DNA of 41,017 bases from the IMG/VR virus record IMGVR_UViG_3300024264_000002, positions 1 through 41,017 of that record; one strand, 5' to 3'. Made by a program: the position numbers and the translations under genes. Positions 1,771-39,059 of the stretch are shown in pieces (positions within the stretch are counted from its first letter, which is position 1; each line of letters begins with the position of its first letter). Source of the DNA: a virus. The notes below the pieces were generated by a model. It had not been told where the DNA came from. It was given only the letters and a program-made list of their open reading frames with translations, and ran no database searches.

Positions 1771-2658
1771 CTAACCTCTCATGAATTGTAGAAACCTTGA
1801 GTGAGTTTCCTTTAAATAACTCTGATATATTTCTGGGTTTTGATTTTTTAAAGCTGTTGTATCCAACCTATTTATGGTCCTATCCTTTAAAGCTAGTTTG
1901 CAGAAACCAGCGTCAAGCTGACCTGCATTTTCCATATATACTAATATGGTGTTTTTTAATGATTCTTTTTCTTCTTCTAGCTTTTTCACTTGGTTGGATA
2001 CTTCCTGATATTCTGAAACTACATGACGAATATGATCATCCGCTTTTTTAACTAGCTCAGTATCAATTGATGGATAGGCTATTTTTAATTCCTCTGGTGT
2101 TCTAGGGCGGGGTGGTATTCCTTTAACTATATAATTCTGCCAGAAATCTATTACCGCTTGCTTAAGATTGGCCTCATACTCAGCATCTCTCCAATAAGTA
2201 AAACATGCATATTCCCAACCAGAAAATAACACTGGTATATCTACACGCTCGGCATCTGTTAACATTGCATAGAACGCTACTTGAGCCTTGTAATATTCAG
2301 GCAAACCATTATCCCACGCTGATATATTTGCCTTTGTAGTTTTAGCCTCAATAATAACATTCTGGCCTTTTATCCTGGCGTCAATATTTGCACGCATGAA
2401 TGGATATTCAGAGCTAACTATAGTTGGTATGTTTGTCTCTATAGTTTCACCACTGCGGTCTACATATTCTTTGAGTACAAACTCCTCAGCTAAGATGCCT
2501 CTACGCATATCCGCATTCATTTCGTCAACTACATCAGGGTTAAGCTTGTCATTGTACACGTCTAAAGCCGTTCTCCATGGTGATACTCCAAGGATAGCTG
2601 CACAATCACTGCCTCCTATACCTTTCTTGCGATCTAGTAAAAATTGTTCTCTACTCAT
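1771..2658 (-). CDS. YqaJ-like viral recombinase-associated exonuclease (PD-(D/E)XK)
   Basis: N-terminal GIGGSDCAAILGVSPW is the YqaJ signature. NIDARI...IIEAKTT matches the D...E-x-K catalytic core. It is paired with RecT. Confidence 0.85.
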   Translation of the reverse strand: MSREQFLLDRKKGIGGSDCAAILGVSPWRTALDVYNDKLNPDVVDEMNADMRRGILAEEFVLKEYVDRSGETIETNIPTIVSSEYPFMRANIDARIKGQNVIIEAKTTKANISAWDNGLPEYYKAQVAFYAMLTDAERVDIPVLFSGWEYACFTYWRDAEYEANLKQAVIDFWQNYIVKGIPPRPRTPEELKIAYPSIDTELVKKADDHIRHVVSEYQEVSNQVKKLEEEKESLKNTILVYMENAGQLDAGFCKLALKDRTINRLDTTALKNQNPEIYQSYLKETHSRFLQFMRG

Positions 2659-2893
2659 TCACAACCTCCCAATCATCAGCTAAGATATCTGCAGGCAAAA
2701 AATTGCTGTATTTAGACTCATTCTCATTATTAGGAAAAAAAGTTTTTAAAGGAATTTGCGACATATCACTTTCTGCCGTTGGTTTATATGCTACAAATAT
2801 ATGAACACAACGATTATTATCTGCAAAATACCATGTTTTTCTTCGTACTTTCCTACCTTCATAGGCAAGTTTTAAAGCTTCTATAATATTCAT
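2651..2893 (-). CDS. DUF2829/Tad2-like small protein (candidate anti-Thoeris signal sponge)
   Basis: From the internal Met the protein reads MNIIEALKLAYEGRKVRRKTW... and ends ...PADILADDWEVV. This matches my recollection of the DUF2829 N- and C-terminal signatures (EAL.ALK.GKKVRRKGW ... DLLA.DWE). I trimmed the start to 2893 because that ATG overlaps the upstream stop (ATGA). Confidence 0.5.
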   Translation of the reverse strand: MNIIEALKLAYEGRKVRRKTWYFADNNRCVHIFVAYKPTAESDMSQIPLKTFFPNNENESKYSNFLPADILADDWEVVNE

Positions 2894-3144
2894 GGCAATA
2901 CTACCTCCAAAGGTCTCCATACAACATTTTCTAACAAAATGCCTTCAGATAATTTCTCAGTAGCATCCGCCTTAATATCTAGCTTATCATTAGGCTTTAA
3001 CTCACCTACATACTCGGTATATTCTCTACAGTTAATTAGATACTGCCATTCATAATGACCTTCATCTAATATTAAATAATACGTTAAATCATCTATTGTA
3101 ACGTACCTATCAAAAGAACCTATAAACTCTCTACGATAACTCAT
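2890..3144 (-). CDS. Hypothetical protein
   Basis: ORF in an operon with its neighbours. I trimmed the start to the Met at 3144 (MSYRREF...), 2 nt after the upstream stop. Confidence 0.45.
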   Translation of the reverse strand: MSYRREFIGSFDRYVTIDDLTYYLILDEGHYEWQYLINCREYTEYVGELKPNDKLDIKADATEKLSEGILLENVVWRPLEVVLP

Positions 3145-3830: not shown

Positions 3831-3909
3831 AATTCCTTAAGCTATGATTGGAGTATAATGGGGGGTGAGGAGTTTGTCAAGCATTTACTTTAAAAAAAAA
3901 GTATTTAAT

Positions 3910-4419
3910 TTAATTATTCCAATTCTCAAGATACTTTTTTACTAGCCGCCTATCTCGTACAATCAAGATATTCTCAGCGTTTCGGGCATCTGCGGACTTA
4001 GTAAAGTTAAAAGAGCCAGTGAGCACTTTTTTCTCATCAATAATCATTATTTTGTTATGAGCTATGCCAGAAACTTTGGCTTTATATATTTTTATTCCTA
4101 CTTCTTCTAATTCTCTTATTAAGGGAAGTTTCTTTTTTGAGAAGTTGCTACTATCAAGGATTATCTCAACATTAACATTACGTTTTGTAGCTTCTTTTAG
4201 TGAGTTAATAATATCTGGATGGGTAAAGCCATACGCTTGGACGTATATACTCTTTTTTGCTTGGTCTATATGACTTACTATGAATGAACCGCATTGATTG
4301 TGCGGAGGAGTGAAGCATACTGAAAATTTAGACTCAGATGCTAAGGACGAAGTGGTAAGAAATAATAATATTAGAAAAAACTTGTTAATAGATCTCATTA
4401 ATCGTCGTAATGTCCCCAC
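3910..4419 (-). CDS. Secreted single-HKD phospholipase D-family protein (Nuc-like endonuclease / PLD)
   Basis: The N-terminal signal-like segment is FFLILLFLTTSSLA. The HKD motif is HNKIMIIDEKKVLTGSFNFTKSA (HxK(x)4D(x)6GSxN). Size and layout resemble plasmid Nuc and small bacterial PLDs. Confidence 0.85.
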   Translation of the reverse strand: MGTLRRLMRSINKFFLILLFLTTSSLASESKFSVCFTPPHNQCGSFIVSHIDQAKKSIYVQAYGFTHPDIINSLKEATKRNVNVEIILDSSNFSKKKLPLIRELEEVGIKIYKAKVSGIAHNKIMIIDEKKVLTGSFNFTKSADARNAENILIVRDRRLVKKYLENWNN

Positions 4420-4658
4420 ATACTTAATATTTTAATCACTTTTTTTTCTTCATTTACTTCATAGACTAATCTATGTTGAATATTAATTCTAATAGATCTT
4501 TTTCCTCTCAGGTCACGATTAAGCTCTTTAGAATTTAAAGGGTGGGGTTCTTTTGTTAACAAATCTCTTGTTTTTTTAGCTTTATTGTAAAGCCCAGCAG
4601 ATTTTAAATTACTAACATGTTTTAGTGCTTTTTTAGTTAGTATTATTTTATATATCAT
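4398..4658 (-). CDS. YoeB/Txe-RelE-superfamily toxin
   Basis: 86 aa, with C-terminal ...RINIQHRLVYEVNEEKKVIKILSMWGHYDD (HRLVY...HY signature). It overlaps the upstream YefM-like gene. Confidence 0.75.
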   Translation of the reverse strand: MIYKIILTKKALKHVSNLKSAGLYNKAKKTRDLLTKEPHPLNSKELNRDLRGKRSIRINIQHRLVYEVNEEKKVIKILSMWGHYDD

Positions 4659-4893
4659 CTGTCCACTCTACACATTCTTCTATAGGCTCTTTGCTAGCCT
4701 CAAGAATTCTTTCAGCCCAACCAGGAACAGAATATATATGCATAGTTTCTAACAAAGATTCGTATTCTTCTTTAGACAACATTACTGCTTCATTACGCTT
4801 ACCTTTAATATATACAGGCTCATGGTGGCTATTAACATCATCCACTAAAGTAAAGAACTTATTTCTAGCTTGGCTTGTTGTGTATATTTGCAT
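4648..4893 (-). CDS. Phd/YefM-family antitoxin
   Basis: MQIYTTSQARNKFFTLVDDVNSHHEPVYIKGKRNEAVMLSKEEYESLLET is the classic YefM N-terminal fold signature. It lies upstream of, and overlaps, the toxin gene. Confidence 0.8.
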   Translation of the reverse strand: MQIYTTSQARNKFFTLVDDVNSHHEPVYIKGKRNEAVMLSKEEYESLLETMHIYSVPGWAERILEASKEPIEECVEWTDDI

Positions 4894-5816: not shown

Positions 5817-5868
5817 ATTTTCCCTTCTGTTATTTTATTTCTATAATATATGCATAAAACGTATATTT

Positions 5869-6010
5869 TCAAGTAAATACTTTTTTTATAAAGTATATGG
5901 TTGACAATATAAAAATACTAATTTAGTGTATTTACTTGAATAAGTTTATAACAGAAAAAAAAAAAATATACACTAAATGCTTGAATTAGTTGAAAAATAC
6001 TTGAATTAAG
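5869..6010. promoter_or_regulatory. Divergent switch region: four T(A/G)CTTGAA half-sites, a 12-bp perfect inverted repeat and candidate divergent promoters
   Basis: TCAAGTAAATAC (5869-5880) is the exact reverse complement of GTATTTACTTGA (5928-5939). Further copies are TGCTTGAAT (5978-5986) and TACTTGAAT (5998-6006). The rightward promoter is TTGACA 5901-5906 with a weak -10, TAGTGT. The leftward promoter is TTGAAA-18-TATTAT and overlaps the first site. An A12 tract lies at 5955-5966. Confidence 0.45.
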
Positions 6011-6196
6011 TGAAATAGTTGAGTTTTGACATGAATAATCATGTGATTGTAGGCGGCTATTTTTGGTAAAATTTAAAAAATAGGCAAAAAAAGAGGCCCA
6101 ACTATGACAGAAAGACCCTTAAGAATTTTCTTTAGTATCAAAATCGTTAACACCCCCTTTCGTGATTTATTAACTAATGTAAAAAATATTTTTATT

Positions 6197-6206
6197 AAAT
6201 TGCGAG
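6197..6206 (+). promoter_or_regulatory. AAATTGCGAG box, copy 1 (5 nt upstream of ATG 6212)
   Basis: Exact 10-mer; see findings. Confidence 0.6.
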
Positions 6207-6211
6207 AAATA

Positions 6212-7045
6212 ATGACAAAATATTTTTACTTCTTATTAACCTTAACCTTTAGAAGAATAAGGGACCATAGCTTTTATTTTTTAATCAAAACTAAACTACT
6301 TAAACAATATATGACATATTTAATTTATTTTGTAAAGCAAAAAATCCCAAAATCGGCATATTACGTAACTTGTGAAACTCATATATACTATTACGTTATA
6401 AAAATTTCATGGAGAAATAATTTGCTTGAATTAAATGCAATTGAATTATACGCACTACAAGATCATTTTCAAGATGAAGGGCTGTGTGAAGCTGGTGCTG
6501 AATGGTTATCTAGATTATCTGTTCATATAGGCCCTTACAAATCATGCGTTACTATAAAACAAATGATGAGGTATACAAAAAAATCTCGTACTCGTTGTTA
6601 TGAATATTTCAGGGATTCATTAAAATTAAAGTTAATCAATAAAAGTAGAACTCCTTCAATAGGTAATCATAATTGTATATCGATACAAATACCTATAAGG
6701 TTTTTATCACCTAAGCAAAAAGAAAACCCCTTCCTCACTTTCTACGGCAAACCAGTAGAAGAAATAGTTACAAACTATGATGGTAAAATCATTAAAGAAA
6801 TTAAACTACTAGATGTATACAGCACAGATGGACATATCCATTTTAAAGAATACTGGATACTCAAAGAAGTAGCTACAGAATCAGAATCAGAATCAGAATC
6901 AGAATCAGAATCAGAATCAGAATCAGAATCAGAATCAGAATCAGAATCAGACTCTATTTGTTTTAAAGCTGTACCTTATACATCTAAATCAAAACATTTT
7001 TTACTCAAAACACTTCAAATTAAACCTTTAGGAGTACACGCATGA
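6212..7045 (+). CDS. Hypothetical early protein with a C-terminal (Glu-Ser)12 tract
   Basis: The ORF track starts at 6104. That N-terminus looks like translated AT-rich leader. I placed the start at ATG 6212, right after the conserved box, but the true start could be further downstream. Confidence 0.4.
   Translation: MTKYFYFLLTLTFRRIRDHSFYFLIKTKLLKQYMTYLIYFVKQKIPKSAYYVTCETHIYYYVIKISWRNNLLELNAIELYALQDHFQDEGLCEAGAEWLSRLSVHIGPYKSCVTIKQMMRYTKKSRTRCYEYFRDSLKLKLINKSRTPSIGNHNCISIQIPIRFLSPKQKENPFLTFYGKPVEEIVTNYDGKIIKEIKLLDVYSTDGHIHFKEYWILKEVATESESESESESESESESESESESESDSICFKAVPYTSKSKHFLLKTLQIKPLGVHA
6878..6949 (+). repeat. Perfect hexanucleotide microsatellite (GAATCA)12 inside a CDS
   Basis: 72 bp of uninterrupted gaatca units encoding ESESES... 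Confidence 0.95.
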
Positions 7046-9544: not shown

Positions 9545-9700
9545 ATGCAAATTGAAAATTTAGATGAAATAGATAGAGTGCTTTTAATTGAATTACAGAA
9601 TTTACCGTTTGAGGAATTTATATTTTTTCAAGCGTTTTACGAAACTAACTCATTCAGTAAAGTTGCGACAGGTGATTCATCTATAAAGACGAATACTTGA
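9545..9700 (+). CDS. Small hypothetical protein (51 aa)
   Basis: ATG at 9545 is preceded by GGGGGAG. The ORF ends at TGA 9698-9700 and is below the ORF-track cut-off. Confidence 0.4.
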   Translation: MQIENLDEIDRVLLIELQNLPFEEFIFFQAFYETNSFSKVATGDSSIKTNT

Positions 9701-9768
9701 CTAATTTAGTAAGCTATTGATACTTTGCTAAATTTGTTGTACAATACAAAAAAAGATATATTTTGAGT

Positions 9769-9796
9769 TTGACATATTGAATAATTTCAATATAAA
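9769..9796 (+). promoter_or_regulatory. Near-consensus sigma70-type promoter
   Basis: TTGACA (9769-9774), a 16-nt spacer, then TATAAA (9791-9796). Confidence 0.6.
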
Positions 9797-9802
9797 ATCA
9801 GA

Positions 9803-9920
9803 ACTGAAAAACATTCTCCGTTGTCTGTTTTCGTCTGTTAAATCTGCATTCTCGCAAAAGATTAGATTAACAAAACTGTTGGTTGAGCCGTTGCACCATG
9901 CGACGGCTTTCTTACTTTCT
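9803..9920 (+). ncRNA. Candidate trans-acting small RNA (about 115 nt) carrying an anti-box loop
   Basis: It is bounded by the promoter above and the terminator at 9886-9920. There is no credible plus-strand ORF. A weak stem AATCT (9841-9845) / AGATT (9859-9863) exposes the loop GCATTCTCGCAAA. CTCGCAA (9851-9857) is the reverse complement of the TTGCGAG box core. Confidence 0.45.
9886..9920 (+). terminator. Rho-independent terminator
   Basis: Stem AGCCGTTGC (9886-9894) / GCGACGGCT (9900-9908) with one G-U pair, loop ACCAT, then TTCTTACTTTCT. Confidence 0.6.
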
Positions 9921-10303
9921 AAACTGTTATTAAATGAATAATTCATTTTTTAAAGATATAATTTAGAACTCATAAGAAACTTATCACAACTCCGACTTTT
10001 TTGCAAATACATAAACCCTCCACAAGTTACTCTATTTGCTCTTGTACGTGTCTTATATCAAGTCTCAGGACTATTCTATTATCTACTTGATAGTCTAATT
10101 GTTATCTGCTAATTTTTAAACACGGTGTTTAAGCGCACTAGTTAAATTTAAATTCCTAGTTATTTTATGCTAGGAGCCTATTATTATAAGTGCTTCTGGC
10201 ATGAAGTATAATAGAGGTCGTTTAACTGACTTGCTTAAGCTCCTAGTTCCATAACAATTAATTAGCTAGGTGTTTATTATGCAAAATTACAAAGGAAAAA
10301 TAA

Positions 10304-11345: not shown

Positions 11346-11374
11346 TTGTCAATAACTGATGGAACAGGTATAAT
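11346..11374 (+). promoter_or_regulatory. Near-consensus sigma70-type promoter upstream of terS (late/packaging operon)
   Basis: TTGTCA (11346-11351), a 17-nt spacer, then TATAAT (11369-11374). Confidence 0.6.
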
Positions 11375-11384
11375 ACAATCACTT

Positions 11385-11394
11385 AAATTGCGAT
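11385..11394 (+). promoter_or_regulatory. Box variant AAATTGCGAT (8 nt upstream of ATG 11403)
   Basis: 9/10 match to the box. It starts 10 nt after the -10 hexamer. Confidence 0.5.
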
Positions 11395-11402
11395 ATTATA
11401 CA

Positions 11403-11810
11403 ATGACAGAAAAGAACTTGGGCGGTCGTCCCGAAATTGAACTCACAGAAAAACAAATAAAAAAAGTTGAAAGATTATCTGCTCATTTAACAACCGAGCA
11501 AATAGCTGATTATTTTGGCATAGATAGAAGTACCTTTTATGAAATTAGAAAGCGTCAGCCAGAGGTTTCCCAACAGTATAAAAAAGGTAGAGCTCAAAAA
11601 ATCTTAAAGTTATCCAAAAAAATAGAAAATAAATCAATGGGTATTGATGAAACTGGATGTGCTACATCTCTTATTTTTTCATTAAAAGCTCTAGGTGAAT
11701 GGTCAGAAAAACAAGTAGTTGAGACCAAAGATACAACTCCATTAAAAAAAGAACCAAGACAAATTAATATATACGTAAATGAAAAGCCAGCGCACAGACT
11801 TGAGGATTGA
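11403..11810 (+). CDS. terS: Terminase small subunit (HTH type)
   Basis: MTEKNLGGRPEIELTEKQIKKVERLSAHLTTEQIADYFGIDRSTFYEIRK...IFSLKALGEWSEK resembles GRP...HTH...W small terminases. It lies immediately upstream of, and overlaps, TerL. The start is trimmed from the track's 11346. Confidence 0.65.
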   Translation: MTEKNLGGRPEIELTEKQIKKVERLSAHLTTEQIADYFGIDRSTFYEIRKRQPEVSQQYKKGRAQKILKLSKKIENKSMGIDETGCATSLIFSLKALGEWSEKQVVETKDTTPLKKEPRQINIYVNEKPAHRLED

Positions 11811-13020: not shown

Positions 13021-14187
13021 ATGTCTGATAGAAACACATTACGGATATTATCACTGGATGGTGGTGGAATGCGAGGCTATCTTTCTGCTATTTTCTTTAA
13101 GCTTTTTGTTCAACAATGGGGAATAAATGCTAATGAGATATGGAAACATTTTGACATAATTACTGGTAGCTCTATTGGTGGTATTACGGCTCTTGCCTAT
13201 GCTAGCGGAAAATCTCCCACTGATATATTGCCATTTTTTACTGAAGATGGGCCATGGATATTTACAACAAGTACCAGCACTCCATCATCTAGACCATCAA
13301 CCTTAACGAAAATTAATACTATTGTTGGCGGCCCATTAAGTAGCCCAACCTTTTATCCAAGTACCACCGATGGAATAGGTACAAAAAGATTAAAGAGTAA
13401 ATTAGATAATGTCTTCGGCATACAAACAATGCAGGATATGAAGACTAATGTTCTAATTACTTCTTTTGAGAAGAATGCTACAGAAACAGATTTTACTCAA
13501 GATAGCAATACACCAATATATTTTTCTAATAGTAATATAGTACCAGTATTAATTGGTCAAAATAATTTAGCCGTAGATGTAGCAATGGCAACAAGTGCTG
13601 CTCCTTTATATTTTCCATCATGGCAGATTGGAGAAGATAAATATATTGATGGCGGAGTAGTACAAAATAATCCAGCATCTTTAGGTCTTGCAATAGCTAA
13701 ATCCTTAAAACCAACAGCAAAACGTTATTGCGTTTTATCAATAGGTACTGGTCTTGGCGATGTGGGTTTTGCATCTACTCAAACCAATATAGTAAAGCAA
13801 AGAGCTATACAGGAAGCTACAGAGTTAAGAAATAATCCAAAAGCGTTTGCTGAAAAATGGCAGTTATCTAGTAGAGAGGTAAAGAGCTTACAGCAAGTAA
13901 GTTCTAATTTAAAGCTTTTAGAAGGTGCATATCTAATTATGTATTTAATTGGTGCTATGGGCGGCGGTGCTCAAGAAATAGTTGCCAAAGAATTAGAGAT
14001 AGAAAGTAAATATACGCTGGATAATTTATATTATTACCGCATGCAATATTATTTAGACCCTGTCAAAGATACAGAGCTGGATAATTCAACATCTTCTATA
14101 CTTGCGTATTATGAGGAATCAGCAACAAACTATTTTAATAATGATATAGCAAATATTAGTAGTTTTATCTCAAGGTTAATAGCATGA
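13021..14187 (+). CDS. Patatin-like phospholipase
   Basis: Oxyanion motif LDGGGMRGY, nucleophile elbow GSSIGG (GxSxG) and catalytic Asp motif YIDGGVVQNNP. The ATG abuts the TerL stop (TAGATG). Its stop overlaps the next ATG (ATGA at 14184-14187). Confidence 0.85.
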   Translation: MSDRNTLRILSLDGGGMRGYLSAIFFKLFVQQWGINANEIWKHFDIITGSSIGGITALAYASGKSPTDILPFFTEDGPWIFTTSTSTPSSRPSTLTKINTIVGGPLSSPTFYPSTTDGIGTKRLKSKLDNVFGIQTMQDMKTNVLITSFEKNATETDFTQDSNTPIYFSNSNIVPVLIGQNNLAVDVAMATSAAPLYFPSWQIGEDKYIDGGVVQNNPASLGLAIAKSLKPTAKRYCVLSIGTGLGDVGFASTQTNIVKQRAIQEATELRNNPKAFAEKWQLSSREVKSLQQVSSNLKLLEGAYLIMYLIGAMGGGAQEIVAKELEIESKYTLDNLYYYRMQYYLDPVKDTELDNSTSSILAYYEESATNYFNNDIANISSFISRLIA

Positions 14188-15854
14188 ATTATGATGTTTT
14201 ACATAATTTTATATCACCTGTTACTGGTAGGGTACTATGCAAGGAAGATTATATTCTAGTTGGTAATAGGGATAATATTGCAGACCCTAGCCCTGCTTTA
14301 ATTGATACTAAGCTTGATTTAATCAAATTACGGCATGATGTAAATGAGTTATTAAATGCTACATTTATATTAGAGGAAGCTAATTTTAAATTACCCAAAG
14401 CTCAAGCCTTGAATATATTAGATAATGGATTTATGTATAATACAGGCGGAATTATCAGCACGACTAATGATGTACCACTGCCCAGTTTAGAATACAAGCA
14501 TTTATGGATAGGAGATAGTAATAATAAGTCTCAAGCTGTTACTACAATTGATATTGATAACTTACCATCACTTGGAACAACAGATGTACCGACTCCTACC
14601 GGTGGCTTTGTTGGTAAGGTTTGGGAAGGTACATCATCAGGGAGACCAGAAGAATCTAGTATTGTTGGTGAGATGTTTGCTGATATTGGAATACTTAATG
14701 CTAAGTTTCTAGCTGGGCATTTTGTTATGAATAGTGGCCTTACTGCATCTTTTCCAAAAGCTCAGTTTTTAAATGCATTAACAGCAGGAGGGTTGGTTAA
14801 AACAAGTAGTGCAGGTGATGGAAAGCTAGAAGCGGTTACACTAAACCAAGACCAAATATTAATGGGCGGTGCTAATAATGTGCCAGAATCAAGAGCAAGA
14901 ATAGGGATAGAGAATTTACCGCTACTTGCAGACAAAAAATTATGGTCAGGTAATGCAGATAGTATTCCACAAAGTATTACAACAATAGATATTAGTAATT
15001 TACCCAATCTTGCTAATAATAATTTATGGATGGGAGGAGAGGATAATCGCCCAATAGCGAAAGTAAGTATTGATATAACCAATCTACCAAACCTTGAACA
15101 AAACAAATTATGGCTAGGTGATGCTGGCAATAGACCAGTAGCACAAAGCACGCTAAATGTAGATAATCTACCTAATCTAACTAATAACATGGTATGGCAA
15201 GGCAATGCCCAAGGACGCCCAACAGAAGTAGAACTTAATTTTGCACCTGTTGATGCTACTTATATATTAAAAACCCCTAAAATAGGTTTGAATAATGCGC
15301 AGGTGTTATCTGAGTTGGTAGGTGGAATATTAAAAAGTGCACCATTAACTGGTACATTAAGCAACGCAATATCAGGAGTTGATTACGCCGCTGAAGCATC
15401 TGTTGTAGCAGCACAAGCTACTGCAGATGGAGCAGCTGCAGAAGCTACCGCTGCAGCAACTGCCGCAGCAGCCGCTCCAGCAGCAGGTGCAGCATTAGCT
15501 GCTGTATATTTTAATGAGCAAATGCTTCCTTATAGTTTAGTACCATTAGTACCAGCTGGAGCTAGCATAAGTGCTGCAATAGGTATTGCCGCTGCTGCGG
15601 CAGCAAGTGCAGCTAGTGATGCAAGTTCGGCTCAAACCACAGCAAATACAGCTATTACACGTATTGACAATTTAAATGTCGCCTTACAAGGGGATATAAT
15701 AGGTAGTGGCAATTTGAAAAATCCTGTTATTACAACTTTTAAATCAAATCCAGTATTTACAGGTACAGGGTCAATGACTATTCCTGTAGGAACAACAGCA
15801 GAAAGACCTAGTAATCCAACTACGGGTATGGTAAGATTGAACACAGAATTATAA
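14184..15854 (+). CDS. Tail fibre segment 1 (repeat-rich)
   Basis: Five or six tandem ~23-aa units (IDI.NLPNL..N.LW.G....RP). An Ala-rich tract follows. The C-terminus is PVGTTAERPSNPTTGMVRLNTEL. Confidence 0.6.
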   Translation: MNYDVLHNFISPVTGRVLCKEDYILVGNRDNIADPSPALIDTKLDLIKLRHDVNELLNATFILEEANFKLPKAQALNILDNGFMYNTGGIISTTNDVPLPSLEYKHLWIGDSNNKSQAVTTIDIDNLPSLGTTDVPTPTGGFVGKVWEGTSSGRPEESSIVGEMFADIGILNAKFLAGHFVMNSGLTASFPKAQFLNALTAGGLVKTSSAGDGKLEAVTLNQDQILMGGANNVPESRARIGIENLPLLADKKLWSGNADSIPQSITTIDISNLPNLANNNLWMGGEDNRPIAKVSIDITNLPNLEQNKLWLGDAGNRPVAQSTLNVDNLPNLTNNMVWQGNAQGRPTEVELNFAPVDATYILKTPKIGLNNAQVLSELVGGILKSAPLTGTLSNAISGVDYAAEASVVAAQATADGAAAEATAAATAAAAAPAAGAALAAVYFNEQMLPYSLVPLVPAGASISAAIGIAAAAAASAASDASSAQTTANTAITRIDNLNVALQGDIIGSGNLKNPVITTFKSNPVFTGTGSMTIPVGTTAERPSNPTTGMVRLNTEL

Positions 15855-15859
15855 AAATA

Positions 15860-15869
15860 AAATTGCGAG
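15860..15869 (+). promoter_or_regulatory. AAATTGCGAG box, copy 2 (7 nt upstream of ATG 15877)
   Basis: Exact 10-mer in the 22-nt gap between fibre segments 1 and 2. Confidence 0.6.
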
Positions 15870-15876
15870 TATTATA

Positions 15877-16287
15877 ATGGCAAGACGAGAATATTATGAT
15901 GGTACCCAATGGGTAGTTGAGACTGATGGAACTGTAAAATCTATAACAGCAGGAACAGGTCTTGATGGTGGTACTATTACTGATACTGGTACAATAACAC
16001 TTGCAAATACAGCAGTTACTGCAGGTAGCTATGATTATGCTTCTATTACTGTAGATGAGCAAGGTAGAATAACTCTTGCAAATTCTGGTACTCCGCCTGT
16101 AACTTCTATTAGTGGTACTGCTAATCAAGTTGATGTAACTGGTACAACAATCTCATTATCGCAGGCTATCGAATGTCCAGGTGATTTAGCAGTTAGTAAT
16201 GGTAATTTTACTCTGCCTGTTGGAACAACTGCAGAGCGCCCAGTCTCTCCAGTAATTGGTATGATGCGAATTAATACAGATTTATAA
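15877..16287 (+). CDS. Tail fibre segment 2 (136-aa cassette)
   Basis: Starts MARREYYDGTQWV and ends PVGTTAERPVSPVIGMMRINTDL. It therefore carries the second half of the motif at its N-terminus and the first half at its C-terminus. Confidence 0.55.
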   Translation: MARREYYDGTQWVVETDGTVKSITAGTGLDGGTITDTGTITLANTAVTAGSYDYASITVDEQGRITLANSGTPPVTSISGTANQVDVTGTTISLSQAIECPGDLAVSNGNFTLPVGTTAERPVSPVIGMMRINTDL

Positions 16288-16290
16288 ACA

Positions 16291-17619
16291 ATGGCAAAAC
16301 CAGAATATTTTGATGGAACTGAGTGGCAGACTTGCTGTGATGGGGCTGAAGTCTCAGTAGAAAACGCACCAAGTACGCCTATTCCTATAACAGGCTCCCT
16401 AACTATTGCAGCAGGCTTAGTTAATATGAATCTTGGCGCAGAGCTTAATGCCTTATCAGCATTTTCTCAGAATGGGATAATGGTTAGAACTGGTACTGGC
16501 AGTTACGCGGGAAGAAGCTTGGTAGCAGCAGATGGGGTAAATATTACTAATGCTGATGGTGTTGCTGATAATCCGATCATTGGCTTAGGCACAGTTGCTA
16601 TTAATAAATTGGCAGGCTATCCCAATAATAACTCATTGTTTTTAAATGGCAGCGGTATATGGAGTAATCCTTTATTTGTTGATACTAATGCTAGCACTTA
16701 TCGTATGCAGTTAAATAATAGTAATTTGAATGCCACAGCTACTGGTCTAATTATTCAGAAGAATGCTGTTGATATGGTAGAGTTTGGCTTTAACAATTCA
16801 ACTAATGAAGCTTATTTCTGGGGAATAGGTCCTGCTGCTTTAAAATTTGGTACTGATGCTACTAAAAGAATGGAGATATTAAGTAATGGTTTAATCAATG
16901 CTTTCAATAAATTTACCTTTTTTGAAAACAGCAAACAGATATATATCAGAGCATCCAGTAATTATTTAGATTTGCGTGGTGATAATGTTAGAAACTCGAA
17001 AGCATCAGCTATCTTAGAAACTAATGCCTATAATGAGACAGCATCGATTGTTATGAATGGTGATTATATTCAAACAATACAGACTTTTGATGATTTAGGT
17101 TTTATCTTTACTGATGATGATGCTGATCCAACCACTAGCTATCAATCTTATATCTCTTCTAATGGAAGTCTTGTTACTGCAAGTTCTAAGAATATCAAGC
17201 AAAGTATACGACCAAAACAAAAGAAGAACTATCTAGAAAGGTTAAATAAACTTAATGTTTATAGCTACTCATTAAAAACACCAATTGATAAAGATGATAG
17301 CCAAAAAAGAAAATGCAGAAAATATTTTAAGAATAAACAATTACATGTAGGACTTCTGTCTGAAGAGGTAAATACATTATTTGATAATGCTACTGATAAT
17401 TATAAGACTATTGATGTTGATGCGGGCAATAAGCAAGAAATTGCTAAAACAGTTGGCAATTACAGGCCAGAAATATCAGAAGCAGATTATATCAAAGATA
17501 AAATGGCAAAAAGAGGTGAGGTTACTGGTATTAATTACAATACACTTTTCTGTTATGCAATTTTAGCAATACAGGAACTAACAGAGAAAGTAGCTAAATT
17601 AGAAGAACGTATAGTTTAA
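16291..17619 (+). CDS. Tail fibre segment 3 with a C-terminal peptidase-S74-like intramolecular chaperone domain
   Basis: Starts MAKPEYFDGTEWQ. The C-terminal region (from about 17180) reads SSKNIKQSI...LNVYSY...HVGLLSEEV...INYNTLFCYAILAIQELTEKVAKLEERI. This resembles the auto-cleaving chaperone of endosialidase/fibre proteins. Confidence 0.65.
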   Translation: MAKPEYFDGTEWQTCCDGAEVSVENAPSTPIPITGSLTIAAGLVNMNLGAELNALSAFSQNGIMVRTGTGSYAGRSLVAADGVNITNADGVADNPIIGLGTVAINKLAGYPNNNSLFLNGSGIWSNPLFVDTNASTYRMQLNNSNLNATATGLIIQKNAVDMVEFGFNNSTNEAYFWGIGPAALKFGTDATKRMEILSNGLINAFNKFTFFENSKQIYIRASSNYLDLRGDNVRNSKASAILETNAYNETASIVMNGDYIQTIQTFDDLGFIFTDDDADPTTSYQSYISSNGSLVTASSKNIKQSIRPKQKKNYLERLNKLNVYSYSLKTPIDKDDSQKRKCRKYFKNKQLHVGLLSEEVNTLFDNATDNYKTIDVDAGNKQEIAKTVGNYRPEISEADYIKDKMAKRGEVTGINYNTLFCYAILAIQELTEKVAKLEERIV

Positions 17620-20217: not shown

Positions 20218-21143
20218 GTGAAGAAGTGAAAGAAGATATTGAAACCATTGCTGAAAACAATGAAATGAACTCTGTTTACGAGAGAATACTCCGTAAGGAG
20301 GATGCTGCCCAAAATACACCTTCTAATAAAGATAGCAGTATATCAATAGATAAAGATATAAAGAAAAATTTATCTCAAGAAGATGCTGGCGAAGATTTTA
20401 AATCAGACAATAAAAATCTTAAATCAACAAAAGATGCAAAACTATCTAAGGAAGAAGAGGAGACAGAGGAGGCATTACCTACAGACGATGTAAAATATAA
20501 AGATTTAGAAAAACAGGTTAATGATGCCAAGAAATGGGGGCAACAGAAAAACCGCCAACTGATTAATAGCAAGCGTAAAGTCTCGGAGCTAGCATCTAAG
20601 CTTGCTGAAGAAGGTGTAATACCAGAAGAAGATATAAAAATCCTGTTAAATAGCTTTGATTCTATTGATGACGATGACGATCAAGAGGAAGAAATAAAAG
20701 AAAATCCGTTTATTAATATTAGACAGAAAATTGATAATGAGTTTAAAACCTTCAAACGTTATAATAAAAAATCTGATGCTGATGAAAAATACGAGGCATT
20801 TTATTCATTCTTTCCAATGATGAGTGAAAAAGAGCAGGAAGAATCATTTAATTACTTGAATGATTCAGAGGCAGATGTTGCTCTTGATTATATTATGACT
20901 CATGGTGCAGAATTATATGAAACCCTTTTTAAGGGAGCTAATGAGAAGGGTGGTATTTTAAAATATGTTAAGTCCTTACAAACTAAGCTTGATAAGCTGG
21001 AAAAAAAGAGCAAAGAACTTGAAAGTGAGCTTGATACAACTACTAAAAAAGTGTATAATAGCAGCAAGGATTCTGAAAGCACATCTTTGGCTAATCGAGC
21101 AAGTACAGCAGAAGCATTTTACAAGCAACGTTACCAAATATGA
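20214..21143 (+). CDS. Scaffolding protein (putative)
   Basis: 309 aa, highly charged with coiled-coil character (Lys/Glu/Asp-rich). It lies between the portal and capsid genes, and its start overlaps the portal stop. Confidence 0.6.
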   Translation: MSEEVKEDIETIAENNEMNSVYERILRKEDAAQNTPSNKDSSISIDKDIKKNLSQEDAGEDFKSDNKNLKSTKDAKLSKEEEETEEALPTDDVKYKDLEKQVNDAKKWGQQKNRQLINSKRKVSELASKLAEEGVIPEEDIKILLNSFDSIDDDDDQEEEIKENPFINIRQKIDNEFKTFKRYNKKSDADEKYEAFYSFFPMMSEKEQEESFNYLNDSEADVALDYIMTHGAELYETLFKGANEKGGILKYVKSLQTKLDKLEKKSKELESELDTTTKKVYNSSKDSESTSLANRASTAEAFYKQRYQI

Positions 21144-21149
21144 TGCGGT

Positions 21150-21302
21150 TATCAATCTAGTTACAGATAAGGCACTCAAAGAGTTTTATCTTTGTCTATC
21201 CCTTAGAAGTAATTAAGAAGTGGTAGCGGACACTGCGAAGAATAATTGAGGCACTCAAGGATTAAATTCCTTGTCTTTCCCTGCAATCGTTCTATCAATC
21301 TA
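21150..21302 (+). promoter_or_regulatory. Structured leader upstream of the capsid gene, with a ~79-bp imperfect direct repeat
   Basis: GGCACTCAA at 21171-21179 and 21250-21258. TTGTCT(A/T)TCCC at 21192-21202 and 21271-21281. TATCAATCTA at 21150-21159 and 21293-21302. Each unit contains a small hairpin. Confidence 0.45.
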
Positions 21303-21363
21303 TCCCGTTTGTAAAAAGAATCAAAATTAGTATTTATTTTTTAATATCAATTTTGGTAAACAA

Positions 21364-22569
21364 ATGGCTATATTCGATAGAAACGATCCTTTTCAGTCGT
21401 TAAATTTTGAAAAGAACATAATTACTCCTTATTTAGAGGAATACAGTAATACAACTATGTTTGACCGCTTTACTGGTGGTCCTGATTCAGTAATTTTTGC
21501 AAAAGTATCAAAAGCGGGTCAAGGTGATGATATTGTCTACAACCAAAGACAGAATTTTGATGCTACAGTTAAAATTGGTAACGAACGCCTAGTTGAAGCA
21601 GAAGATGAGCTAACTTACGGCGTAGACCGCTTAAGAGTTGGCTTTTTTCGTTTTGGTACAAGAATTACTAATAAGCAATTACAAGAATTGCAGATAAATC
21701 ATAAATTTGACCCAGATGTTAGATCACAATTATTATGGCAAGGTGAGCGTTTAAATTCTCAAAGAATTATGCGTCAATTTGGACTAGCTTTTGCAGAAAA
21801 TAGTAGAGGTGCCCCCAATCAGAGATACAGTTATGCTGACCTTATCGCAAAAATACTAGCTTGTGGAATTGATGGCTTACAAAATGGTGAGGCTATTTCC
21901 AGATCAAGAGTAGTATTTGGACTGGATAAAGGTTTAGCTCAAGACAGAGTAGGGGCTGCATTAGTAAATGCTGTTATGAATTCTGCCGCTGATGATACAT
22001 TAACAGCAAATCATCTATTTAAATTAGCATCTCTTGCAAGTAAAGGCTCAAGAACAGATGTACTTCATAAAGAAGCTCCAATACGTCCTTATACAATGGG
22101 TAAAAATCGTATGGGATTCCCGAATAAGAAATACCTGCTGCTAACTTCAGATGATGCTTATTATAAGCTATCACAAGACCCAAATTGGCGTGATCAGCAA
22201 ATTAGAGGGACTATTGAGAATGAAGAGCAACCAAGTATTCTATTTGGCAGTAATTATAAAGGTACACTGCATGGGGTGATGGTAGTAACTGTTCCAGAAT
22301 TTTCAAACTATATTTTTACCAATGGAGAAGCAACTAGTTATGCATATTCAGCATTTCTTGGTTCATCTGCAATGGGACTTGGTATTGGTCAAATTCCATC
22401 ATTCGCTTCAGAAAGTTATGATTATGGTCTATACCATGGTCTTGCTCATATTGAAGTTAGTGATGCAAAAGTACTTAAGTTCCCGTCAAAAACAGACCTT
22501 ACAAGGAAAGGGGTTAATACTTTGAAAGTAGAAAATGGCATGATTCACTCATTTGTAAGATTAGATTAA
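21364..22569 (+). CDS. Major capsid protein (putative, HK97-fold class)
   Basis: 401 aa, positioned after the scaffold gene. Size and composition are typical of a major capsid protein. This is a positional call and no motif was verified. Confidence 0.6.
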   Translation: MAIFDRNDPFQSLNFEKNIITPYLEEYSNTTMFDRFTGGPDSVIFAKVSKAGQGDDIVYNQRQNFDATVKIGNERLVEAEDELTYGVDRLRVGFFRFGTRITNKQLQELQINHKFDPDVRSQLLWQGERLNSQRIMRQFGLAFAENSRGAPNQRYSYADLIAKILACGIDGLQNGEAISRSRVVFGLDKGLAQDRVGAALVNAVMNSAADDTLTANHLFKLASLASKGSRTDVLHKEAPIRPYTMGKNRMGFPNKKYLLLTSDDAYYKLSQDPNWRDQQIRGTIENEEQPSILFGSNYKGTLHGVMVVTVPEFSNYIFTNGEATSYAYSAFLGSSAMGLGIGQIPSFASESYDYGLYHGLAHIEVSDAKVLKFPSKTDLTRKGVNTLKVENGMIHSFVRLD

Positions 22570-22589: not shown

Positions 22590-23066
22590 ATGAATAAATA
22601 TATTGTAAATTTACCCAATCCAGTTGTAGCAACTAACAATGCTAATTTAGTAACTGGCATAACTGGAGCAAGATGGGTTGGAACTAATCCAGATGAAGCA
22701 GGAGCAGCTGGAAACTTTGCTGCTGGAAATGGATTAATATATAGTAATGCTATTGTTGGTAATAAAACTGATACGGCTCTTTCTAAGATTGTAACATTAA
22801 AAATACCAACTCTTACTGCAGGTACAGACAATGGCGTGCAAGTAGATTTAGCCGCACTAGAGTTTTCAAGTGGGATTACAATACTTGGTATTATTGGAAT
22901 TGGTATAGTTGATACAGCAGCAGGTGCTTCTTTAGTAGCAAATCCTACAGTTCTTGCAGCACTAAACTATAGTATCGTTAGAAATTCTATGATTATAGAA
23001 GTGCCACAAGCTCAGATACCTAACTTAGAGAACAAAAGTTTAAATGTAATGATCTATTACAGGTAA
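22590..23066 (+). CDS. Hypothetical virion protein (possible decoration or minor capsid protein)
   Basis: 158 aa, Gly/Ala/Asn-rich, with SD AAGGAG upstream, directly downstream of the capsid gene. Confidence 0.45.
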   Translation: MNKYIVNLPNPVVATNNANLVTGITGARWVGTNPDEAGAAGNFAAGNGLIYSNAIVGNKTDTALSKIVTLKIPTLTAGTDNGVQVDLAALEFSSGITILGIIGIGIVDTAAGASLVANPTVLAALNYSIVRNSMIIEVPQAQIPNLENKSLNVMIYYR

Positions 23067-29001: not shown

Positions 29002-29011
29002 AAATTGCGAG
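29002..29011 (+). promoter_or_regulatory. AAATTGCGAG box, copy 4 (10 nt upstream of ATG 29022)
   Basis: Exact 10-mer. Confidence 0.6.
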
Positions 29012-34155: not shown

Positions 34156-34161
34156 CTAATT

Positions 34162-34171
34162 CTCGCAATTT
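34162..34171 (-). promoter_or_regulatory. AAATTGCGAG box, copy 5 (minus strand, 6 nt upstream of GTG 34155)
   Basis: The plus strand reads CTCGCAATTT. Confidence 0.55.
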
Positions 34172-38338: not shown

Positions 38339-38543
38339 TATTTCTCGCAGTCAAAATAAACACTTCTATATGCAAGATTATACCATATCTAGTAAGTATT
38401 ACCAAGAGTTTTAACTATATGTAATGTTTTTGCTAGTATATCTAGAAAGCCACAATAAAAGTTCATCTAAAGGAATATTCTCATCACTGTTTTTAAGACA
38501 CTTAATCAGTGTATCTCTTTTAATGAGTGTTTTTTTGTCCATA

Positions 38544-39059
38544 TTAATCTACCAAACCACCATTTTTACCTTTTAATGTACGTCTGATTGCTCCTTTTAC
38601 ACAAGCATCCTTATAACGCTGTGTTCCGCAATAAATACGGCAGAAATAAAATGCCTTTTTATTACTTATATTAAAGATTTTTGCTATTTCCTTATGTATA
38701 CCAATAGCGAGTGGTCGCGCTGGTTTATCTTTTGGAGGAAAGGCTTTTGGGTTAGATTCTTGAAGTTGTAGCAATATTTTATAATATTGGTTTATACTAA
38801 TCGGAGTTTCTAAGAACTTTTCGTATTCTGTTTTTGGCTTTAATGCCTTTAGTCTAGCCTCTTCTTTTGCCTTAGCTTCTGCTTCCTTTTTAGCTTGATA
38901 TTTGTTTAAAGCATTATTAGCTGATACCTTACCGCCTTTGCCAATAAATATTTCCGAACGCTTAGGCTCTGGTGGCTTTGGTTTAGGTATTCTTGCTTGT
39001 AACTTAAGTAATGCTTCGCCTGACAGCTTAAGCTTTAGTGTAGGTTTCTGTTCAGTCAT
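38544..39059 (-). CDS. FinO/ProQ-domain RNA chaperone
   Basis: N-terminal MTEQKPTLKLKL parallels F-plasmid FinO (MTEQKRPVLTLK). A Lys-rich helix follows. The C-terminal ARPLAIGIHKEIAKIF...KKAFYFCRIYCGTQRYKDACVKGAIRRTLKG parallels FinO PRLLACGIRDVL...[29 protein letters not shown]. Confidence 0.75.
   Translation of the reverse strand: MTEQKPTLKLKLSGEALLKLQARIPKPKPPEPKRSEIFIGKGGKVSANNALNKYQAKKEAEAKAKEEARLKALKPKTEYEKFLETPISINQYYKILLQLQESNPKAFPPKDKPARPLAIGIHKEIAKIFNISNKKAFYFCRIYCGTQRYKDACVKGAIRRTLKGKNGGLVD

Follow-up and report, generated by a model that had tools for sequence, protein, structure and literature searches.

A short, directional sequence box stands in the initiation region of genes that head the packaging, fibre and internal-protein modules of a phage-plasmid, and recurs in the leader of its replication gene. 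The leading explanation makes this box an RNA operator common to these genes, through which their translation would be coordinated. The likeliest factor acting on it would be an antisense RNA assisted by the ProQ/FinO chaperone that the element encodes, and the box appears specific to the MAnkyphage-like phage-plasmid lineage of Rickettsiaceae endosymbionts. For this reading as a whole, lineage specificity included, a probability of roughly 0.4 seems appropriate. The window, meaning the entire 41,017-nucleotide stretch that was analysed, is a circular 40.9-kb MAnkyphage-like podovirus or phage-plasmid whose host is a Rickettsiaceae endosymbiont (Ca. Megaira relatives). Megablast with 20 kb of the window returned no match among phages and plasmids, and an exact 15-mer scan of IMG/VR gave chance matches only. 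A RecE-based locus search found nothing, an Rfam scan matched no family, and a tRNA search of the window found none.

The box has the consensus W-AAA-Y-TGCGAG-R, with TGCGAG as its conserved core. An initial, sequence-only reading of this DNA placed exact copies of AAATTGCGAG at 6197, 15860, 19558 and 29002 on the plus strand and at 34171-34162 on the minus strand, together with a variant, AAATTGCGAT, at 11385, and considered such a word to be expected well under once. All of this was confirmed: the five exact copies in the window compare with an expectation of 0.07, and at least five were reached in none of 100 dinucleotide shuffles. The catalogue of copies required amendment, as its five start-linked copies are real but a sixth, at 38353-38344 on the minus strand, had been overlooked. 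Two further occurrences were set aside as coding coincidences, one at 19558 in the portal gene (K-L-R-E-F) and one at 3557 on the minus strand (Cys-Glu in a CxxC protein); in both cases relatives keep the protein sequence. The six functional copies (6197, 11385, 15860, 29002, 34171- and 38353-) are all sense to the local genes, and each lies 4-10 nt from an ATG or GTG start. For the core hexamer, five of the 11 TGCGAG occurrences in the window fall within 4-10 nt 5' of gene starts, an interval that covers 0.5% of positions (binomial P = 1.3e-9). Start-proximal copies make up 14 of 47 TGCGAG occurrences in the family, as against 0 of 107 in a Megaira plasmid plus 358-420 kb of other phages. The longer word AAAYTGCGAG was found in none of ~300 unrelated loci, and a 64-kb Ca. 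Megaira plasmid, used as a host proxy, contains neither AAAYTGCGAG nor start-proximal TGCGAG. As far as this 64-kb proxy goes, the word is not the generic host word that had been named as a possible refutation.

Copy 1 (AAATTGCGAG, 6197..6206, plus strand) occupies the leader of a rep-initiator-like gene. Copy 2 (AAATTGCGAT, 11385..11394, plus strand) is 8 nt 5' of the terS ATG at 11403 and 10 nt 3' of a -10 element. Copy 3 (AAATTGCGAG, 15860..15869, plus strand) lies within the 22 nt that separate the stop of fibre segment 1 (15854) from the ATG of fibre segment 2 (15877); it follows that stop codon by 6 nt and has no promoter. Copy 4 (AAATTGCGAG, 29002..29011, plus strand), in which the next base is a G and gives GAGG, is 10 nt 5' of ATG 29022, the start of the first of three large internal or ejection-type proteins, whose promoter lies at 28963-28991. 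Copy 5 (AAATTGCGAG, 34162..34171, minus strand) precedes by 6 nt the GTG at 34155 that begins a 75-aa hydrophobic protein, with a promoter at 34220-34193. Copy 6 (TGACTGCGAG, 38344..38353, minus strand) is C-type and 5 nt 5' of ATG 38338, in the context GACTGCGAG-N5-ATG (38353-38344), behind an extended -10 promoter at 38405-38377. It heads the gene 38114-38338, which encodes a 74-aa product and lies directly 3' of the ProQ/FinO gene. The start distances of 5, 8, 7, 10 and 6 nt first noted for 6197, 11385, 15860, 29002 and 34171- hold good.

The box had also been taken to be part of the leader, located where ribosomes bind, and not to be the promoter itself, a view that is borne out. Both promoters cited for it, TTGTCA-17-TATAAT (11346-11374) and TGGAAA-17-TATAAT (28963-28991), indeed stop 10 nt 5' of the box. 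Across all sites, however, the spacing from -10 to box is variable, being 10, 10, 21 and 23 nt in the window and 12-29 nt in relatives (10-29 nt in all), whereas the spacing to the start stays at 4-10 nt. This variable distance to the promoter identifies a leader or RBS element, as does the promoterless copy at 15860. At no copy does the box extend into a -35 or -10 hexamer.

The box is also present at orthologous sites in several related lineages. Of 17 sites drawn from three lineages, 16 have TGCGAG unchanged, and the flanks vary. The region of copy 1 is conserved at the nucleotide level with L001 and L003, and at terS both the promoter and TGCGAG are kept in L001-L003. Copy 3 has orthologues at 13342 in L003 and 3252 in L104, copy 4 at 9985 in L093, 4872 in L094 and 9941 in L096, with CTTGTGAGG in L095, and copy 6 is kept in L093 and L094. 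Same-position variants occur in L095, L301, L303 and L306 and in MAnkyphage (CCTTGCGAG, start-proximal in 4/7). The flanking base is C-type in all six copies of lineage ii and mostly T-type in the window and L001/L093; the MAnkyphage flank is CC-T. Such a lineage-wide T/C switch points to co-evolution with an element-encoded factor and not with the invariant ribosome. In L306 the box has been lost at terS and the promoter retained, so expression as such does not depend on the box.

Folding predictions place the box in single-stranded RNA throughout. Copy 1 falls in a predicted loop of ~24 nt within the hairpin 6179-6229, and the rep-leader box lies in a hairpin loop whose stems differ among six lineages (combined Fisher P 8e-5). 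Copy 5 occupies the 20-nt loop of a hairpin at 34141-34186, the 3' arm of which contains the start codon (z -2.1; p 0.003). A hairpin forms at its orthologue too (L093 14777), and the box at MAnkyphage terL likewise lies in a hairpin loop; the other box leaders are predicted to be unstructured. The display of the box in hairpin loops argues for its recognition as RNA.

The ORF that follows copy 1 has weak homology to the MAnkyphage replication initiator. ATG 6212 had been read as the start of an early gene, which is not supported, given that relatives have a 2-codon ORF, a 31-codon ORF or ACG after the same box. On this comparison ATG 6212 is probably the start of a leader ORF and not that of the conserved rep-like protein. 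The short ORF that follows the rep-leader box in some lineages overlaps the rep start in L003, and L306 keeps the box though its ATG has become ACG. Other roles considered for this region were rejected. A HUH nick site in the hairpin loop does not suit a Rep protein of winged-helix type; an IncI-type pseudoknot joining the loop to the RBS of rep finds no complement near rep starts; and a cis anti-box at 6158-6169 (12 pairs including G.U) is not kept in L001 or L003. At the rep-leader hairpin, a search for a conserved antisense promoter that could drive a rep countertranscript found none.

The genome itself offers two concrete candidates for a trans factor: a chaperone of the FinO/ProQ type and an sRNA unit that carries the box complement. 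The former is a 171-aa ProQ/FinO RNA-chaperone protein (38544..39059, minus strand), a candidate helper for RNA-RNA pairing, with PF04352 at its C-terminus (E 5.9e-11, 42.8 bits vs a cut-off of 27) and weak similarity to E. coli ProQ (structure 5nb9). It is present at 82% identity in L093 and 76% in L094, and occurs also in L301; its closest plasmid homologues are Rickettsia proteins named 'ProQ/FINO family protein'. FinO-family genes occur on Rickettsiaceae plasmids and chromosomes (PMC9977716). In MAnkyphage, which has the box, no ProQ/FinO gene was detected.

The second candidate is a putative trans-acting sRNA unit at 9769..9919 on the plus strand, with a predicted 115-nt RNA (~9805-9919) and no ORF. 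Its promoter, TTGACA-18-TAAAAT (9769-9798), matches at 11 of 12 positions, its central hairpin holds UUCUCGCAA (9849-9857), the complement of UUGCGAGAA, in the apical loop, and it ends in a strong intrinsic terminator (9885-9909) with a U tail (z -2.5 for the unit). Intrinsic terminators are bound by FinO domains (PMC9674577). The anti-box is the sole perfect complement of at least 9 nt outside the boxes' own antisense strands, and its perfect pairing with the box extends over 9-10 bp at 6197 and 34171 and 6-8 bp elsewhere, with 6 bp at terS. As the chance of a 9-nt box complement somewhere in the window is ~0.2, the match is notable solely through its context. RNAduplex comparison of all start regions with the sRNA hairpin ranked box sites moderately better than background and was weakly discriminating, and an anti-box search that allowed G.U pairs was too noisy to be informative. 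The non-coding island at 9700-10300 is absent in L001, L003, L301 and L306, and neither an sRNA homologue nor a non-coding anti-box of at least 8 nt was found in L001/L093, lineage ii, L301, L306 or L177. A 20-mer of the sRNA loop had no match in IMG/VR, nor did the island match plasmids. An anti-box in MAnkyphage (22787-22795) lies within coding sequence (P-R-K-A) and is therefore probably a coincidence. Because the sRNA was not found in relatives, the trans factor stays a candidate.

Under the proposed mechanism, the box would serve as a single-stranded cis-acting RNA element in the initiation regions of the lead genes, namely those of terS and packaging, fibre segment 2, the internal-protein block and two small genes. 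There its GAG or GAGG is the only Shine-Dalgarno-like sequence in the leaders, and at the rep initiator the box would be presented in the loop of the leader hairpin. Since one sequence is common to all sites, one trans factor could set their translation jointly, and downstream genes would follow by translational coupling. An antisense RNA, for which the unit at 9805-9919 is the candidate with its anti-box atop a hairpin and its terminal intrinsic terminator, would be produced, pair with the box and block 30S binding, and the ProQ/FinO-domain chaperone of the element may assist it. Precedents are FinO/FinP on traJ, FopA/Inc on repZ, PcnR on a rep-leader stem-loop and RocC/RocR on several 5'UTRs (PMC9977716). 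Among the roles listed in the sequence-only reading, an sRNA target and a site for a translational regulator fit best with the single-stranded box, the ProQ/FinO gene and the complementary sRNA-like unit. A weak Shine-Dalgarno function of GAG is compatible with the evidence, and an element-specific transcription factor is not favoured. The mechanism in its fullest form, a post-transcriptional regulon in which one anti-box RNA held by FinO/ProQ pairs with the boxes of the packaging, fibre, internal and small-membrane lead genes as well as the rep-leader loop, is somewhat unlikely.

The factor could instead be a protein that needs no antisense RNA, with the box as the RNA site of a sequence-specific phage or host repressor or activator comparable to T4 RegA, Mu Com or PcnR. 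This would explain position, orientation, conservation, single-strandedness and the lineage-specific flanks just as the RNA operator paired by an antisense RNA does, and it would also account for the box being kept in relatives and MAnkyphage without the sRNA unit. The two GTG starts located in the 3' arm of a box hairpin could be opened or locked by a loop binder. It is nevertheless an unlikely solution, since the sole RNA-binding candidate in Pfam and PHROG scans of ~50 products is the FinO domain, with no sequence-specific RNA-binding protein among them. PcnR, which has a FinO domain, does make direct contact with a stem-loop located in the leader ORF of a rep gene (PMC9977716), but the FinO domain recognises terminator-like hairpins and not loop sequences (PMC9674577).

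Quite unlikely is a box that has no trans factor at all and works as a weak Shine-Dalgarno sequence (GAG/GAGG) in an A/U-rich, unstructured leader, its cassettes homogenised by shared descent or recombination. The Shine-Dalgarno content amounts to GAG (dG ~-3 kcal/mol) in four of the six copies, GAGG in one and nothing at terS, and the box-to-start spacers contain no other such sequence. Taken as at least 4 nt against CCUCC at 5-10 nt from the start, a canonical Shine-Dalgarno is not what the box provides. The earlier statement that most other genes use AGGAG-type sequences is half true, a core of at least 4 nt being present in 25 of 52 other genes, and the anti-SD pairing of box genes is not significantly weaker than theirs (p 0.30), with GAG/GAGG at ideal spacing. 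TGC and AAAY, however, are as conserved as GAG and by inspection find no partner in the canonical CCUCC tail, which may not be that of the host. Extended pairing with the 16S 3' tail was rejected, as GAG(G) alone pairs. The orthologues of 29022 that drift to TGTGAGG yet retain GAGG, the start codons of mini- or leader ORFs inside rep-leader loops in several lineages, and the loss of the box at terS in L306 would all suit a ribosome-read site. Against this, lineages iv (L004-6, L099) retain AAATCCTTGCAAA without GAG, the rep-leader box of L306 persists despite the change of ATG to ACG, and the word is absent at gene starts of the Megaira plasmid. The lineage-wide T/C switch would also be unexpected of a sequence read by the ribosome. 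A leaderless start from a -10-like box was dismissed, as the spacing to ATG is too variable.

P1 C1 operators are duplex-DNA repressor sites, as are the L5 stoperators (PMC3203893). Both resemble the box in being asymmetric, scattered, oriented with transcription and placed in short intergenic gaps. It is conceivable, though improbable, that the box is such an operator, at which a repressor of the plasmid or lysogenic state blocks RNA polymerase at the lytic modules. The box stands at several operon heads, a plasmid lifestyle is indicated by ParA and TA genes in the element, and at terS and 29022, whose near-consensus sigma70 promoters would need silencing in the carrier state, the box covers ~+4 to +13. 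L5 stoperators and P1 C1 operators, however, show no constant relation to start codons, whereas the box is start-coupled and displayed single-stranded. This tight coupling and the absence of another Shine-Dalgarno are left unexplained by a DNA operator, and neither the variable promoter distance nor the promoterless copy agrees with one. Unrelated inverted repeats that keep the box in a loop fit single-stranded recognition, not duplex DNA. A palindrome unlike the box, ATACTTT-N6-AAAGTAT, occurs twice in the switch region as the putative operator there, and the box is probably not the early-promoter operator.

Highly improbable is a leader transcription signal, whether a special polymerase or sigma element, a sigma-dependent or elemental pause (TGCG) or an ops- or nut-like site of antiterminator loading: TGCG corresponds to the 3' portion of the consensus for elemental pausing, the T-type TAAATT is -10-like and the location at the heads of long operons recalls ops and nut sites, but no RNA polymerase, sigma factor or NusG paralogue occurs among the scanned products, conservation ends beyond ~12 nt, the -10-like TAnnnT is lost in C-type lineages, and the fibre-2 copy lies inside an operon just past a stop codon. 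Sigma54 (-12 TTGC) is excluded by the missing GG at -24, and sigma54 is not known from Rickettsiales. A sigma32- or ECF-like -35 has no matching -10. A T7-like promoter starting at GCGAG was rejected on the short conserved stretch, the absence of a polymerase gene and the good sigma70 promoters upstream, and a sigma70-dependent pause at TAAATT on its loss from the C-type lineages.

An RNA operator of the preferred kind has partial parallels. The small phage RNAs c4 of P1 and P7 and CI of P4 pair with short leader repeats that include an RBS and so keep lytic functions off in the plasmid or lysogenic state. Unlike the RNA proposed here, they act on one or two targets of a single operon, arise by processing of the very transcript they control and use no FinO-type chaperone. 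In the plasmid systems FinP/FinO-traJ, Inc RNA/FopA-repZ and PcnR-repR/repA, the mobile element encodes a FinO-domain protein and the target is a leader stem-loop, with a leader ORF, that belongs to the replication initiator or to a master activator (PMC9977716). The likeness extends to the window, where the most conserved box copy is that of a rep-leader stem-loop. The antisense RNAs of the plasmids, however, are cis-encoded with a single target, whereas in the window the loop sequence is repeated at five other genes. In Legionella competence, RocR, a terminator sRNA bound by the FinO-domain protein RocC, represses several mRNAs through a shared complement in their 5'UTRs (PMC9977716; PMC7973641). 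The window parallels this arrangement in its FinO-domain gene, its sRNA-like unit with a terminator and its shared 5'UTR box. Unlike RocR, the sRNA candidate is drawn from sequence alone and is not conserved in relatives, its targets would be phage modules, and it is carried by a phage-plasmid whose host is an alphaproteobacterium with an obligate intracellular life.

Another comparison is with the Start-Associated Sequences (SAS) of Cluster K mycobacteriophages (Pope et al., 2011; PMC3203893), the function of which was still unverified in 2025 (PMC12699233). SAS and the box are both short asymmetric repeats, many per genome and in one orientation, that lie at the RBS position a few nt 5' of starts (3-8 for SAS); for the box this holds with the exception of the rep leader, where the ATG is not conserved. 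SAS join an SD-like core to conserved positions unable to pair with 16S rRNA; the box has a much weaker SD-like core, and its further conserved positions by inspection would not pair with the canonical tail. Both are conserved across subgroups of one phage family, and SAS are absent from the host. About half of SAS have flanking inverted repeats (ESAS), and their consensus varies by subcluster. Some box copies also lie between inverted repeats that differ among lineages, but unlike SAS the box is enclosed in the loop. SAS number 11-19 per genome and accompany non-structural genes only, whereas the six boxes head structural, packaging and replication modules. The sequences themselves are unrelated (GGGATAGGAGCCC for SAS, AAAYTGCGAG for the box), host phylum and phage type differ, and the box does not match the 13-bp SAS consensus within two mismatches, so it is an analogue of SAS and not a member.

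SAS-type repeats have been known from mycobacteriophages since 2011 without a mechanism, and the box adds a case that is unrelated to them and arose independently, with phage and host both very different. In addition, it opens a first view of how genes are regulated in the relatives of MAnkyphage, the phages and phage-plasmids of Rickettsiales endosymbionts, which have barely been studied. Tools for expression control are scarce in these hosts, and should the box prove to be a common translational operator, it would provide a handle with which whole modules of such elements could be switched on or off. If the proposal is true, virion production and plasmid copy number would be tied to a single RNA switch. 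No earlier case would then be known of a phage life cycle controlled by a FinO-dependent sRNA with several targets, and the mechanism of SAS in other phages would gain a model.

In the window a short repeat, the box, precedes start codons; its standing as a start-associated cis element, single-stranded and specific to one family, is well supported. The sequence-only reading had reported five exact copies of AAATTGCGAG, at 6197, 15860, 19558 and 29002 on the plus strand and at 34171-34162 on the minus strand, a 9/10 variant at 11385, start codons 5-10 nt downstream of five of these six, and sigma70-type promoters upstream of two (11346-11374 and 28963-28991). All of this is confirmed. The variant reads AAATTGCGAT, and dinucleotide-preserving shuffles predict 0.07 copies of AAATTGCGAG against the five observed. 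Sub-word analysis places the core at TGCGAG; five of the 11 such hexamers on both strands of the window are start-proximal, falling within a zone 4-10 nt upstream of gene starts that covers 406 positions, or 0.5% of the sequence (binomial P = 1.3e-9). A sixth start-associated copy, absent from the earlier reading, is GACTGCGAG-N5-ATG at 38353-38344 (-). The words at 19558 and 3557(-) were rejected as coding coincidences, specifying K-L-R-E-F of the portal protein and Cys-Glu of a CxxC protein, respectively, and are retained in relatives as protein sequence.

The window derives from a JGI metagenome and has a GC content of 34%. It is a circularly permuted genome of 40,904 bp, as its ends (positions 1-113 and 40905-41017) are identical over 113 nt. 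Structural and packaging genes (terS, terL, portal, major capsid, fibre) are accompanied by those for RecE/RecT, SSB, endolysin, ParA, an 8-repeat ankyrin protein, a patatin-like phospholipase and a toxin-antitoxin. No close DNA match was found in phage or plasmid collections. The genes are ordered as in 'Megaira polyxenophila phage MAnkyphage_25.80', whose portal shows 44% identity to the one here, and ParA shares 69% identity with ParA of Ca. Megaira polyxenophila and Rickettsia endosymbiont plasmids; the element is therefore a MAnkyphage-like podovirus/phage-plasmid of a Rickettsiaceae endosymbiont.

Several other features mark this genome. The ankyrin-repeat gene runs across the genome junction (39970-40782 onward) with at least eight ANK repeats and a 99-nt DNA period, and the phospholipase gene (13021-14187) sits between terL and the fibre genes. 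Other accessory loci lie at 2651-2920(-), 3910-4419(-), 4398-4893(-) and 34272-34904, and the further accessory domains are Tad2-like (anti-Thoeris), a PLD-like nuclease, a Phd/YefM-ParE/YoeB pair and a SocA/Panacea antitoxin. A 40-nt inverted repeat (3874-3913 and 5868-5907), adjoined by two strong minus-strand promoters, contains the palindrome ATACTTT-N6-AAAGTAT, probably an immunity operator. The repeat ACTTGAAT(T)A(A)G, possibly an iteron, occurs three times ahead of the rep region (5925-6010), and an (AGAATC)n repeat at 6853-6954 encodes a (Glu-Ser)n linker of the rep-like protein; in the same place, the related contigs L001 and L003 have (Glu-Ser)n and (Lys-Ser)n, respectively. The fibre region (14184-17619) is split among ORFs of 556, 136 and 442 aa in place of the single 1039-aa ORF of L001; segments 1 and 2 end in a common conserved C-terminal motif, and a box lies at the first junction. 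The major capsid gene leader (21144-21363, 220 nt) is strongly structured (z -2.9), holds two small hairpins, each formed by one copy of a 34-nt unit (21170-21203 and 21249-21282), and lacks the box despite a near-consensus promoter at 21031-21059.

Related contigs were collected via terL, the internal/ejection-type protein encoded at 29022 and the 534-aa replication protein. In L001 and L093 (terL 89% identical), orthologous boxes are found at terS, the 29022-type gene, the two small genes (75 and 74 aa) and the rep leader; in lineage ii (84%; L002, L003, L094, L096), at the rep leader, terS, fibre segment 2, the 29022-type gene and the 74-aa gene; and in L104, at fibre segment 2. Alignment of 17 sites gives the consensus W-A-A-A-Y-TGCGAG-R, with TGCGAG unchanged in 16, variable flanks, and conserved sequence confined to about 12 nt. 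More distant relatives carry single-base variants in the same positions (CTTGTGAGG in L095, AAACTGTGAG in L301, AAATTGCGAA in L303, AAATTGAGAG and AAATTAAGCGAG in L306), and in lineages where terL identity is 63-67%, the terS leader carries AAATCCTTGCAAA. Of the seven CCTTGCGAG/CTTGCGAG copies in MAnkyphage, four precede a start by 6-8 nt. The base directly before TGCGAG is C in all six lineage ii copies, T in five of six window copies and four of five in L001/L093, and T, itself preceded by C(C), in MAnkyphage, a difference that appears lineage-wide and concerted.

Under a strict criterion (4-10 nt before ATG/GTG, an ORF of at least 45 aa, an in-frame stop just upstream), TGCGAG is start-proximal in 14 of 47 family hexamers and in 0 of the 107 counted across three comparison sets: a Ca. 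Megaira plasmid of 64 kb, Haemophilus-type prophages totalling 241 kb, and other relatives totalling 117 kb. AAAYTGCGAG was found in none of the unrelated loci examined. The Ca. Megaira polyxenophila 64-kb 'plasmid' (CP113869.1) lacks the box; with its genes for a tail fibre, a terminase-like protein, RecT, patatin and ParA, it seems to be a second, distinct phage-plasmid, or what is left of one. Among described phenomena, the Start-Associated Sequence of Cluster K mycobacteriophages comes closest; this 13-mer (PMC3203893), whose function is still unverified (PMC12699233), is unrelated to the box in sequence and the same in genomic behavior.

As an immunity-repressor operator the box failed its test, the genetic switch region carrying its own, different palindromic operator. 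A promoter element is also rejected: the -10 hexamer lies 10, 10, 21 and 23 nt from boxes in the window and 12-29 nt from those of relatives, a variation (10-29 nt) that upholds the earlier view that the box is not the promoter itself; the 15860 copy lies in a 22-nt gap, 6 nt past the stop of fibre segment 1; conservation spans only ~12 nt; and the window products scanned included no RNA polymerase, sigma factor or NusG-like protein. The ribosome alone is one candidate reader. The box-to-start spacer is A/T only in all box leaders, their sole SD-like sequence is the box's own GAG (GAGG at 29002), and pairing with the canonical anti-SD is weak (predicted about -3 kcal/mol), though not significantly weaker than in the other 52 window genes, of which just 25 carry an SD core of at least 4 nt. 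As a canonical SD the box nevertheless failed: TGC and the AAAY flank are unable to pair with the canonical 16S tail, yet are conserved equally with GAG, and distant lineages keep TTGC without GAG.

In predicted structures, the box is single-stranded throughout. No significant structure was found in the terS, 29022, fibre-2 and 38338 leaders, and in the rep leader the box occupies a 24-34-nt hairpin loop whose stem sequence differs in each lineage, with 5' / 3' arms GTAAAAA.. / ..TTTTTAC in the window, TCAAATGGTTTT / AAAACCTTTTGA in L001, TCAAATGTTT / AAACTATTTGA in L003, CAAAAAC / GTTTTTG in L301, TTACAAAAAC / GTCTTTGTAA in L306 and CTACTAAGG / CCTTAGTAG in MAnkyphage (flank-shuffle p = 0.008-0.31 per site; Fisher's combined P 8e-5). 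Similar hairpins exist in L005 and L006. This region is conserved at the nucleotide, not the protein, level; the reading frame across the box differs between lineages with T and with C before TGCGAG, the ATG after it starts an ORF of 2 codons in L001 and one of 31 codons, overlapping the rep start, in L003, and L306 has ACG instead. Hairpin-loop boxes also occur at the 75-aa gene (34171; p 0.003) and MAnkyphage terL (p 0.007), each with the GTG start within the 3' arm. Because inverted repeats of arbitrary sequence keep the box unpaired, these models argue for its recognition as single-stranded nucleic acid, most simply RNA, and a sequence-specific RNA-binding protein is a candidate reader. 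About 90 nt upstream of its lysis cassette, MAnkyphage also has TTCGCAAGG-N14-CCTTGCGAG (21367-21403), a 9-bp hairpin or palindrome pairing the box with its own complement. A small hairpin, TTGCCCGATGGGTAA (38305-38319, minus strand), lies just within the 74-aa gene; its nucleotides are kept in L093 and L094, the surrounding codons are not.

The preferred reading, held tentatively at a probability of about 0.4, is that an antisense RNA with a FinO-like chaperone reads the box. The product of 38544-39059(-), whose gene adjoins parA, has a ProQ/FinO domain scoring above the Pfam gathering threshold. The gene is kept in L093, L094 and L301, immediately upstream of the box at 38353-38344, and was not detected in MAnkyphage. 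Among plasmid proteins, its closest homologues come from Rickettsia and are annotated 'ProQ/FINO family'; Rickettsiaceae chromosomes and plasmids are reported to carry members of the family (PMC9977716), and FinO-domain proteins bind intrinsic terminator hairpins of partner RNAs (PMC9674577). The promoter of an sRNA-like unit at 9769-9919 (+), TTGACA-18-TAAAAT, ranks among the best in the window, and its intrinsic terminator is unmatched in the first 20 kb; the unit has no ORF and folds better than shuffles (z -2.5). Near the apex of its central hairpin, UUCUCGCAA is the perfect complement of UUGCGAGAA, matching the rep-leader box at 6197 over 9 bp, the 34171 box over 10 bp and the others over 6-8 bp; apart from the antisense strands of the boxes themselves, no other perfect complement reaches 9 nt. 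The unit, which has a second promoter at 9717-9745, stands alone in the non-coding island of 600 bp that separates the replication gene from SSB. Against an antisense RNA with a chaperone, this island is absent from every relative examined, none of which has another non-coding anti-box (complement of the box); the rep-leader hairpin yielded no conserved antisense promoter; and the presence of some 9-nt complement in the window is, taken alone, not improbable. Loss of the terS box in L306, where the promoter is kept, is a further weak point.

Mechanistically, FinO-family antisense systems are nearest to the proposed regulation, as are the phage immunity RNAs P1 c4 and P4 CI. In FinP/FinO, a cis antisense RNA acts on the traJ RBS; in Inc/FopA, an antisense RNA targets the rep leader; PcnR binds a rep-leader stem-loop directly; and in RocR/RocC, one trans sRNA targets several 5'UTRs (PMC9977716). 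Within the window, the 34141-34186 hairpin that displays the 34171 box is followed on the opposite strand by UGUUUUAUU, an arrangement kept in L093, so that, read on the plus strand, it could also be the terminator of the convergent gene 33615-33950. If so, that transcript would carry a perfect 12-nt anti-box in the loop at its 3' end.
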